Assembly (NCBI GenBank): GCA_963678065.2
Contig: CAXXVZ010000003.1
Location: forward strand, 1,152,001-1,216,000
Origin: Treponemataceae bacterium
GTDB lineage: Bacteria > Spirochaetota > Spirochaetia > Treponematales > Rectinemataceae
Length of the DNA stretch: 64,000 nt
Direction of reading: 5' to 3'
Of this stretch, positions 1-1,080 are shown one piece after another. A program made the translations under genes and the position numbers. Under the pieces are notes generated by a model. That model searched no databases, was not told the origin of the DNA, and saw nothing but the letters and a program-made list of their open reading frames with translations. Every line of letters begins with the position of its first letter. The stretch's first letter is position 1.

Positions 1-138
1 ATTTTCGACGACCGGCCTGGGCATAATCTTTTAGCCGGGGTCATACCCCACAAAGCGCGTACTGCCTGCCGCCGGCTCCCGGGTTCCGTCGAACCCAGCC
101 TACCACGATCGTTGTACCGCCAGGGGAAACATATCATC
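1..138 (-). mobile_element. End of a putative second inserted element (IS110-family-like) interrupting the IS3 orfA; the rest lies off the window
   Basis: IS3 orfA similarity stops at ATA CTA AAA (minus strand, ~139-147) and is followed by unrelated, hairpin-rich non-coding sequence. No transposase is visible in the window. Confidence 0.5.
12..98 (-). ncRNA. Putative bridge/seek-RNA-like structured RNA (partial)
   Basis: Hairpin GGGTTC-CGTC-GAACCC at 81-96. Outer stems CCGGC (12-16)/GCCGG (71-75) and GGCA (20-23)/TGCC (63-66) enclose an internal loop that carries the hairpin GGGGT-CAT-ACCCC (37-49), flanked by ATCTTTTAG (26-34, identical to the junction at 136-144) and AAAGCG (52-57). Confidence 0.45.
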
Positions 139-393
139 TTTTAGTATTGCATTCGCCTCACGAAGTTCATCATTTTCCTTTTTCAGCCTGGTCATTTCCT
201 GATCACGTGCATTCCCTTGTCCGGTAAATGCTTGTTTGTGTATTTCCTGACTCTCCCGTCGCCACCGGCACAATAGTCCAGGATCAATTCCCAAGTCTTT
301 GGCCACGTTCCGGGCACTCCTGCCTGACCGTTCCAAGTGTTCAAGTGCTTCTTTCTTGAACTCTGCCGCGTACTTCCTTCTTTTGTCTTCCAT
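100..393 (-). CDS. IS3-family transposase OrfA (HTH plus leucine zipper), C-terminus disrupted
   Basis: RRKYAAEFKKEA...VAKDLGI...LCRWRR...EMTRLKKENDELREANAILK is typical OrfA. The usual ...LKKA end is replaced by DDMFPLAVQRSW. Confidence 0.85.
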   Translation of the reverse strand: MEDKRRKYAAEFKKEALEHLERSGRSARNVAKDLGIDPGLLCRWRRESQEIHKQAFTGQGNARDQEMTRLKKENDELREANAILKDDMFPLAVQRSW

Positions 394-457: not shown

Positions 458-1080
458 CCCCACACGGGCGCGTGGATTGAAACATGTTAATCATCCGAAC
501 GCGGGAGCGGAGGTAGGGTCGCGCCCCACACGGGCGCGTGGATTGAAACGTTGAAATTATGGACGATCTCAGTCCATACTCCCGTCGCGCCCCACACGGG
601 CGCGTGGATTGAAACAAAGAGGACACAGGGAAGACCCATCCGGCATTTGTGTCGCGCCTCACGCGGGCGCGTGGATTGAAACCCCATCAGGTCAACGGCT
701 TCGTGACTGCGCAGGTGGTCGCGCCCCACGCGGGCGCGTGGATTGAAACGGAGGAACATCATACCTGTCCATTGTTGCCGCTCATCGCGCCCCACGCGGG
801 CGCGTGGATTGAAACCTAATAAGGTGATCTGTCCGCATCATCTTCCATGTCGCGCCCCACGCGGGCGCGTGGATTGAAACATTTCTCCTCTTTCTAAGTA
901 CATAGGCGTCATTGGTCGCGCCCCTCGCGGGCGCGCGGATTGAAACCGCCTGTGTCCGACCTCGTGACTTCCGACCTCGCCGTCGCGCCCCTCGCGGGCG
1001 TGTGGATTGAAACGTCCTCGGAATAAAGATAGTCATACCGGCTGGAAGGTCGCGCCCCTCGCGGGCGCGTGGATTGAAAC
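458..1080 (+). CRISPR. CRISPR array with type I-C-like 32-bp repeat GTCGCGCCCCACGCGGGCGCGTGGATTGAAAC; 9 full repeats, 1 truncated repeat, 9 spacers of 33-35 bp
   Basis: Repeats start at 458 (partial, lacks GTCGCG), 518, 584, 651, 718, 784, 849, 915, 982 and 1049. Palindromic stem and ATTGAAAC 3' handle. No cas genes in the window. Confidence 0.97.

Follow-up and report, generated by a model that had tools for sequence, protein, structure and literature searches.

An IS110-family element with a predicted bridge RNA lies in the putative frameshift signal of an IS3 element in a Treponemataceae bacterium

We analysed a 64,000-nucleotide stretch of a Treponemataceae bacterium genome (the window; G000:C3:1152001-1216000) and found that its first 138 bases belong to a mobile element that has broken into another. 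With a probability of about 0.88, positions 1-138 belong to the non-coding upstream end of an IS110-family element lodged in the A7 run where an IS3 orfA finishes, an end that encodes a predicted two-loop bridge RNA whose target loop would guide the recombinase to the frameshift signal. A preliminary description of the window had reported the broken orfA beside guide-like copies of its target, and that observation is real and confirmed. The guides in this end match the site and change with the insertion site in relatives, so the element likely uses its guide RNA to parasitise and disable IS3 elements. Coordinates refer to the window unless they carry the prefix L001, a locus whose positions are converted to window positions by subtracting 10000. 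Features lie on the minus strand, except for the CRISPR array, to which no strand is assigned.

Results

An IS110-family recombinase adjoins the window

The preliminary description had called for an IS110 recombinase next to the window, and one lies directly to its left. P0001 (367 aa, L001 8788-9891) contains DEDD_Tnp_IS110 (PF01548) and Transposase_20 (PF02371), carries all five catalytic residues (D12, E58, D97, D100 and S267) and scores 211.7 bits against the NCBIfam IS110 profile NF033542 (cut-off 140). Its two domains, with the DEDD residues and the serine, are those of the IS110 family in the broad sense. The element is 1.37 kb long and has 248 bp of non-coding sequence upstream of the gene, of which the first 138 fall within the window (1-138), and ~15 bp downstream. 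Its right end has TTGACA (L001 8786-8791), the sub-terminal repeat GGAAACATA and an A-run; the sequence downstream of the recombinase gene reads GGAAACATAG, then seven A and GCC, then IS3 orfB. A small hairpin spans the recombinase ribosome-binding site (L001 9893-9920); it recurs in close relatives, as judged by eye, and may repress translation of the recombinase.

The insertion splits an IS3 element at the end of orfA

The left part of the host IS3 occupies 139-457, the end at 457 being fixed by loose ends in run X5. It encodes HTH_Tnp_1 in orfA, which starts at 393 and extends to the A-run. As it stands, orfA runs into the insert and yields a 97-aa read-through OrfA (ORF 100-393) ending LKDDMFPLAVQRSW. 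The right part, with orfB, lies at L001 7837-8768 (NF033516, 327.5 bits). When 1367 bp were excised in silico, orfA regained the ending ILKKAVAIFSVPRRGN and orfB followed in the -1 frame over the A7 run. The host therefore shows the hallmarks of the IS3 family: a helix-turn-helix OrfA, an OrfB integrase core in the -1 frame and an A-run between them. It also has TG...CA ends and a 3-bp duplication, and its own empty insertion site is present in run X7. Judged from the sequence, the A-run at the end of orfA is the putative IS3 frameshift signal.

Unfilled copies of this IS3 exist elsewhere. The empty site reads CTAAAAAAAGCC and is intact in genomes G019 and G048; the underlying search gave any match in 11 of 61 genomes. 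All six of the seven OrfA matches other than the host protein have LKKA at the matching place, and P0122, 83% identical to the host OrfA, has exactly the predicted tail. In run X5, one contig spans the empty site at a depth of 42.6, with a short side of only 28 letters; the filled form has a depth of 47.6 and the IS3 arms are near 90. Run X13 contains the same empty-site joint at a depth of 2.3. Whether intact copies of the IS3 natively contain 1-138 had been raised as a possible objection, and these empty copies (G019, G048, P0122 and the X5 and X13 joints) do not.

At the left junction (138-144) the left target CTAAA (144-140) meets the core AG (139-138), and an AG-AT start is common to the parsed left ends. 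Beyond the far end the IS3 resumes, as had been predicted, with AAAGCC in place of the expected AAAGCG. The A-run at the right junction (L001 8769-8775) comprises seven A here and five in runs X5, X7, X10 and X13. Both copies in G000 thus have two more A at this far junction than the simple model gives; the four runs, from three studies, show the expected right junction, with two A fewer in the filled form. Runs X3, X4 and X9 agree with G000, and may be the source of that genome or close to it. Because both G000 copies share the two extra A, they likely share an origin, either a single event after which the composite moved or a single variant circle. The empty site and expected junction (X5 and X13), together with a comparison of ends, indicate site-specific insertion without true target duplication, the G000 copies differing by the +2 A. 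A 4-base AAAA core was rejected, since the clade ends, the donor guide, the 17-bp promoter spacing and the shorter junction in four runs all favour a 2-base core.

The second copy in G000 (C3:1907.6-1910.2 kb) is identical over the element and lies inside an apparent other insertion sequence. The genome contained no free copy of the IS110 element and no intact copy of this host IS3. Both of its A7-GCC sites are filled, and perfect empty sites number zero where 1.5 are expected by chance. Three intact IS3 copies carry the CT-A9-GTAC site of another IS3 group, and all are unfilled, as the guide predicts; with two filled against three unfilled sites, and the two possibly one event, this in-genome control is small. 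A pattern search of 401 genomes for intact A9-type IS3 sites gave 11 matches, no more than its reversed control, and was therefore set aside.

The composite is itself nested in other repeated DNA

The 2621-bp IS3::IS110 composite interrupts a CRISPR array, the remainder of which lies at 458-1080. It inserted within a CRISPR repeat and is flanked by a 3-bp CCC duplication. The split array covers ~C3:1140.5-1153.1 kb (window 458-1080 and L001 1-7836), with ~10 repeats on the window side, and we take its repeat to resemble type I-C. One spacer occurs five times in tandem at L001 7000-7300. A two-ORF element, presumably IS630-like, encloses the second composite copy (L002 2344-6121; G000:C3:1906.9-1910.7 kb), giving a triple nesting. 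Run X7 contains the empty site at a depth of 233, and the 3-bp duplication has one mismatch. The reverse nesting also occurs: at G000:C3:1736.4-1738.9 kb a FLKKKY-type IS3 sits inside the upstream region of another IS110-like element. The latter is 30% identical, bears the end motifs TTGACA and ATAGGAG, and has an empty form at C5:68.2-69.5 kb.

Homologous ends share a covarying RNA fold

The minus strand of 1-100 folds into the shape originally described. A predicted target-binding loop (12-75) is bounded by outer stems 12-23/63-75 and encloses an inner hairpin at 37-49; beyond it, a 5' hairpin at 81-96 has a conserved GACG loop, with changes on both sides in 8 of 9 pairs. The individual motifs (ATCTTTTAG at 136-144 and 26-34, AAAGCG at 52-57) and structures (hairpin 37-49, stems 20-23/63-66 and 12-16/71-75, hairpin 81-96) from the preliminary description are all present. 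The 3' arm of hairpin 81-96 can pair alternatively with the 3' end of the non-coding region.

The fold alone and the 9-mer alone are weak, so the case rests on context and relatives. Single-sequence stability did not exceed that of shuffled sequences (z -0.98 for 1-100, +0.19 for 1-150 and +0.06 for the 256-nt region), ATCTTTTAG occurs 13 times in the genome against ~7 expected, and Rfam gave no match at E up to 1. We therefore compared related elements. Scans for the clade gave 68 metagenome and 46 genome loci, leaving out family-level matches that gave no parse with the end patterns (L151-L153 and L156). Left ends were usable in 60 loci, 37 of them distinct, and 31 of these were aligned after six near-duplicates were dropped. 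In the 31 aligned ends, 33 pairs in five helices were 94.8% paired, against 34-47% in slid controls, for a structure derived from the same alignment. Compensatory change supports the pairing, with 25 of the 33 pairs altered on both sides. A long-range pairing that would enclose a multi-branched loop covaries as well (-15.0 vs -10.8 kcal/mol; 0/100,000; 19 of 31 rows). The consensus fold contains the hairpin, stems and loop first described, plus a second hairpin-bearing loop. Some Leptospira copies (L111, L124 and L129) have extra insertions within the predicted RNA loops.

Both guides follow the insertion site

The loop in the window had been put forward as holding the two guides, one for each half of the target. 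It is the target loop; the donor loop lies just outside the window. On its 5' side, the guide at 52-61 complements the top strand right of the cut (GCUUU vs AAAGC), with eight matches if one base is bulged. On its 3' side, the guide at 26-34 reads CUAAA followed by AG, the core, and AU, the element's own first bases. The 9-mer, initially seen as a copy of the target, is thus one over its five left-flank bases, the remainder being the AG core and two bases of the element's own end. By analogy with IS621, the AU after the core is likely a handshake pair; these parallels would therefore make the 9-mer five target bases, the core and the likely handshake pair.

Across relatives, the pentamer preceding the conserved AGAU is identical to the left flank at 5/5 positions in 21 of 30 rows and at 4/5 in the other 9. 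For 18 distinct guides the mean match was 4.72 of 5, compared with 1.92 after permutation (0/100,000). The 5'-side guide matched the right flank at 6.4 of 8 positions over 23 distinct rows, compared with 4.35 (0/100,000), when scored at three offsets with half credit for wobble and with this element placed on its empty-site flank. Both are permutation tests in which kinship is reduced, not fully removed. The 5'-side guide of the present element is among the weakest of the set, scoring 5 of 8 unbulged and 8 when one base is bulged; because the real target is CTAAAA|AAAGCC, it matches five contiguous bases. The claim of guides for both target halves therefore stands as to their presence and their covariation with the flanks, the second being shorter than proposed. 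A structured region with a target loop that matches both strands and covaries with its targets is what characterises a bridge RNA.

It is very improbable that the matches are accidental or a relic of local duplication, that the region is a promoter or leader and that the protein drives target choice. Such an account can draw on the 13 genomic copies of the 9-mer, the unremarkable single-sequence fold and the empty Rfam search, and it is largely refuted by guide-flank covariation over 18 different left and 23 right guides, to which the compensatory pairing in the RNA fold adds. Together with the recombinase and the resumption of the IS3, the guides support the original interpretation of an element putatively programmed for the IS3 frameshift motif.

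Many distant clade members (L046, L055, L062, L065, L068, L073, L077, L094 and L095) have CACAG as their left guide and lie in repeated DNA rich in CACAGAG. This DNA is possibly a family of short chromosomal repeats that serves as a target.

A predicted second loop matches the element's right end

The ends are conserved in the clade: the left one reads AG-AT-NN-TATG and the right one TTGAC(A)...CATAG-R-AG. A -10-like hexamer, TATGTT (128-133), lies in the sub-terminal repeat, and joining the ends would place it 17 bp from TTGACA, a predicted circle promoter. The spacer between the -35-like and -10-like boxes of the joined ends is 17 bp in 26 of the 28 elements for which both ends are available, and from this spacing follows a 2-base AG core. 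In the integrated state, scanning for promoters gave no sigma-70-like site. The circle-junction joint was not seen in contigs of seven runs, a type of data that does not show absence.

The predicted donor-binding loop takes in the first bases of the window (1-2) and continues to its left, from L001 10002 down to 9957. It consists of a 5' side AUCAG, a hairpin and a 3' side AUAGAAG that equals the element's right end over seven bases. Whether such a loop is needed bears on a seekRNA-type alternative, in which a processed short RNA from the target loop suffices and the protein recognises the ends through the sub-terminal repeats, with no donor loop. The available passages on ISEc11 and ISEc21 describe short RNAs with target matches as sufficient (PMC11187229), the 9-bp sub-terminal repeat is present here, and the 5' side of the donor loop covaries weakly (3.74 vs 3.41 of 5; 189/100,000). 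Against this stands the 3' side, where in addition to the seven-base identity the variable G/A base of AUAG-R-AG follows the right end in 28 of 28 rows, the A variant occurring in two separate lineages. The hairpin of the second loop also has changes on both sides in 9 of 11 pairs. We consider the seekRNA-type account rather improbable, and favour a two-loop bridge RNA.

Close relatives occupy the same IS3 site with an altered guide

In a quick tree of clade members only, the element falls in a subclade with an SH-aLRT of 100. The scans gave 18 loci of this subclade, 15 with a readable end, and relatives at 62-70% identity occupy the same orfA A-run with the guide altered to match. At 12 of the 15 the junction adjoins an IS3 arm where orfA ends in ENEWLK; these 12 represent ~5 distinct non-coding variants besides this one, many being the same element in different samples. 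Their IS3 host is 28% (OrfA) and 31% (OrfB) identical to the host described here. The relatives' 5'-side guide, (A/G)UACUUUUU(U), fits their flank AAAAAGTAC. In two further cases the junction reads differently, L031 having IS3 on the right only and L041 an N at the junction. Among the other 96 loci, the sole IS3 match is in L091, on the opposite strand and not at the junction.

These loci bear on a competing explanation in which guidance is to a generic (C/T)TAAAA-AAAG A-tract and IS3 sites are simply its commonest multicopy match, with no IS3 specialisation. The remaining 3 of the 15 readable loci (L024, L030 and L032) lie in non-IS3 sites that resemble the guides, and the 11-bp target is short, with 1.5 chance occurrences expected in G000. 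The 12 loci in IS3 argue the other way, as does a guide that differs exactly as needed to follow two IS3 groups ~30% alike in protein. A single contig of run X5 also holds the complete element flanked by IS3 at both ends. We regard guidance to a generic A-tract as unlikely; it would alter the evolutionary reading, not the guide mechanism.

A protein census of the relatives' IS3 group (ENEWLKK; P0128-P0247) pointed to variation at the target itself. Among the 120 OrfA clusters listed, 64 have the native KKKY frame, 23 and 5 are in two shifted frames, the latter 5 reading straight into orfB, and 18 end otherwise; a further 10 carry the insert-derived LKDDM tail, a count that gives no prevalence because the query itself carried that tail. 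The shifted frames would be A-run length polymorphism, sequencing error or excision scars. They suggest that empty IS3 copies differ in the length of their A-run, a variation that may account for right junctions with 5, 6 or 7 A. P0228 is an OrfA with the ending WLKMICF; judged from the protein alone, it may point to a further clade member inserted in the same IS3 site, shifted by one base.

The layout combines features of the IS110 and IS1111 groups

The element is a member of the broad IS110 family, and its layout departs from both strict groups; the quick tree covers the clade only. In the passages of PMC11187229 that define the groups, IS110 elements have the non-coding region upstream and the bottom-strand match first, and IS1111 elements have the top-strand complement first. 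Here the long non-coding region is upstream, as in the strict IS110 group, and the guide order is reversed across the clade. The top-strand complement comes ahead of the match to the bottom strand, as in the IS1111 group, whose non-coding region is downstream of the gene and whose 11-13 bp sub-terminal repeats with extensions of 7 (or 6) and 3 bp also differ from ours. The sub-terminal repeat is 9 bp here and 10 bp in close relatives, with extensions of 5 and 3. The layout is therefore unusual, with an upstream RNA and yet an IS1111-type guide order, departing from the strict IS110 group in guide order and from the IS1111 group in RNA position and repeat length.

As far as the same passages describe them, the IS1111-group elements ISEc11, ISKpn4 and ISPa11 share with this element the top-strand complement first, sub-terminal repeats, a 3-bp right extension, a GLxPxxxxSG motif and no target duplication. 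They differ in a downstream non-coding region, repeats of 11-13 rather than 9-10 bp, a left extension of 6-7 rather than 5 bp and proteins of 330-350 rather than 367 aa. ISEc21 is reported there to target IS3 at the codons around the DDE motif's second D (Siddiquee et al. 2024, PMC11187229). In that account it resembles this element in its upstream non-coding region, an RNA matching both target strands, a target within IS3-family elements and natural re-targeting in a relative. It differs in striking the DDE codons rather than the A-run between orfA and orfB, and in placing the bottom-strand match first.

The bridge RNA system of IS621, in the published sections that we compared (Durrant et al. 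2024, PMC11208160; Hiraizumi et al. 2024, PMC11208158), likewise has its RNA in a long left end. Its protein is distantly similar to P0001 (E 5e-10). Shared features are a target loop followed by a donor loop, a 2-base core, a junction promoter (loops and promoter being predictions here) and the DEDD residues with the serine; read on the opposite strand, the core is CT, and the AU after it resembles the handshake bases A81/U82. Unlike in IS621, the site here is inverted with respect to the gene, so that the sense strand has an AG core and the guides come in reverse order; the sub-terminal repeat is longer (9-10 bp), and the donor loop is predicted to lie in a multi-branched fold.

Among named elements, the closest is ISLin1 of Leptospira interrogans (35% identity over 98% of the protein; L149). 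It shares the end motifs and non-coding layout, and differs in its guides and in not lying in IS3 at the loci examined. It is labelled IS110 in the source data excerpted from PMC11187229, and the literature passages that name it with IS110 do not have its RNA as their subject. A published prediction for ISLin1 may exist. In the literature searched, we found no report of an IS110 element at an IS3 frameshift site; the relevant passages of 2025 and 2026 preprints do not mention IS3.

Discussion

These observations are consistent with a mechanism modelled on IS621. The element would form a circle, whose joined ends would create a TTGACA-17 bp-TATGTT promoter from which the RNA would be made. Base pairing would link the target loop to CTAAA-AA-AAGCC on both strands and the donor loop to the joined element ends, with strand exchange at the 2-base core. 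According to the relevant passages of PMC11208158, IS621 has a CT core in which the T is nearly invariant and TT also works, and the top strand is cleaved downstream of the core, with A81/U82 as handshake bases. On the opposite strand the AG core of the clade would be the CT core of IS621, and the AA core of the target would be the tolerated TT variant. If strands are exchanged beside the core, the element's AG should end up at the left junction and the target's AA at the right, and these are the cores seen in the sequence. The element would thus resemble IS621 in its mode of action, except that its recombination site is turned round relative to the gene; this inversion would account for the IS1111-type guide order. 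For IS621 itself, excision by cutting or by copying is disputed in the sections consulted (PMC13626964; 10.64898/2026.08.31.748434).

Because the insertion separates orfA from orfB, a filled IS3 is left without its OrfAB transposase. It may still produce near-full OrfA and OrfB. In the passages available on ISSau2, OrfA and OrfB each lowered transposition (PMC5771124), so that a filled copy may, by analogy, inhibit its siblings. The element has the same orientation as orfA, and the IS3 promoter could drive its transcription. In IS1447, as described in the part of the source consulted, A9 runs can slip in transcription (PMC6211511), and the signal struck here may accordingly be ribosomal or transcriptional.

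A broader reading, to which we give somewhat less than even odds, is that of an RNA-guided lineage specialised on the IS3 recoding signal, a motif that divergent IS3 groups must keep, and re-programming its guide between those groups. Hits would turn an IS3 into a source of inhibitory OrfA and OrfB and a carrier of the composite, and the ISLin1-like branch would be neither classic IS110 nor IS1111, with its upstream RNA and inverted site.

RNA guides of IS110 elements and targets in mobile elements, IS3 included, are already published, so the finding extends rather than overturns what is established. It points to RNA-guided parasitism of one mobile element by another at a recoding signal, and a comparison of two IS3 groups makes natural re-programming of the guide visible. 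P0001 is likely a bridge recombinase with a natural tolerance for a homopolymer target and a non-standard core. The clade offers ~30 natural guide-target pairs and a layout that mixes features separating IS110 from IS1111, and it bears on how ends are recognised, the question that divides bridge RNAs from seekRNAs.
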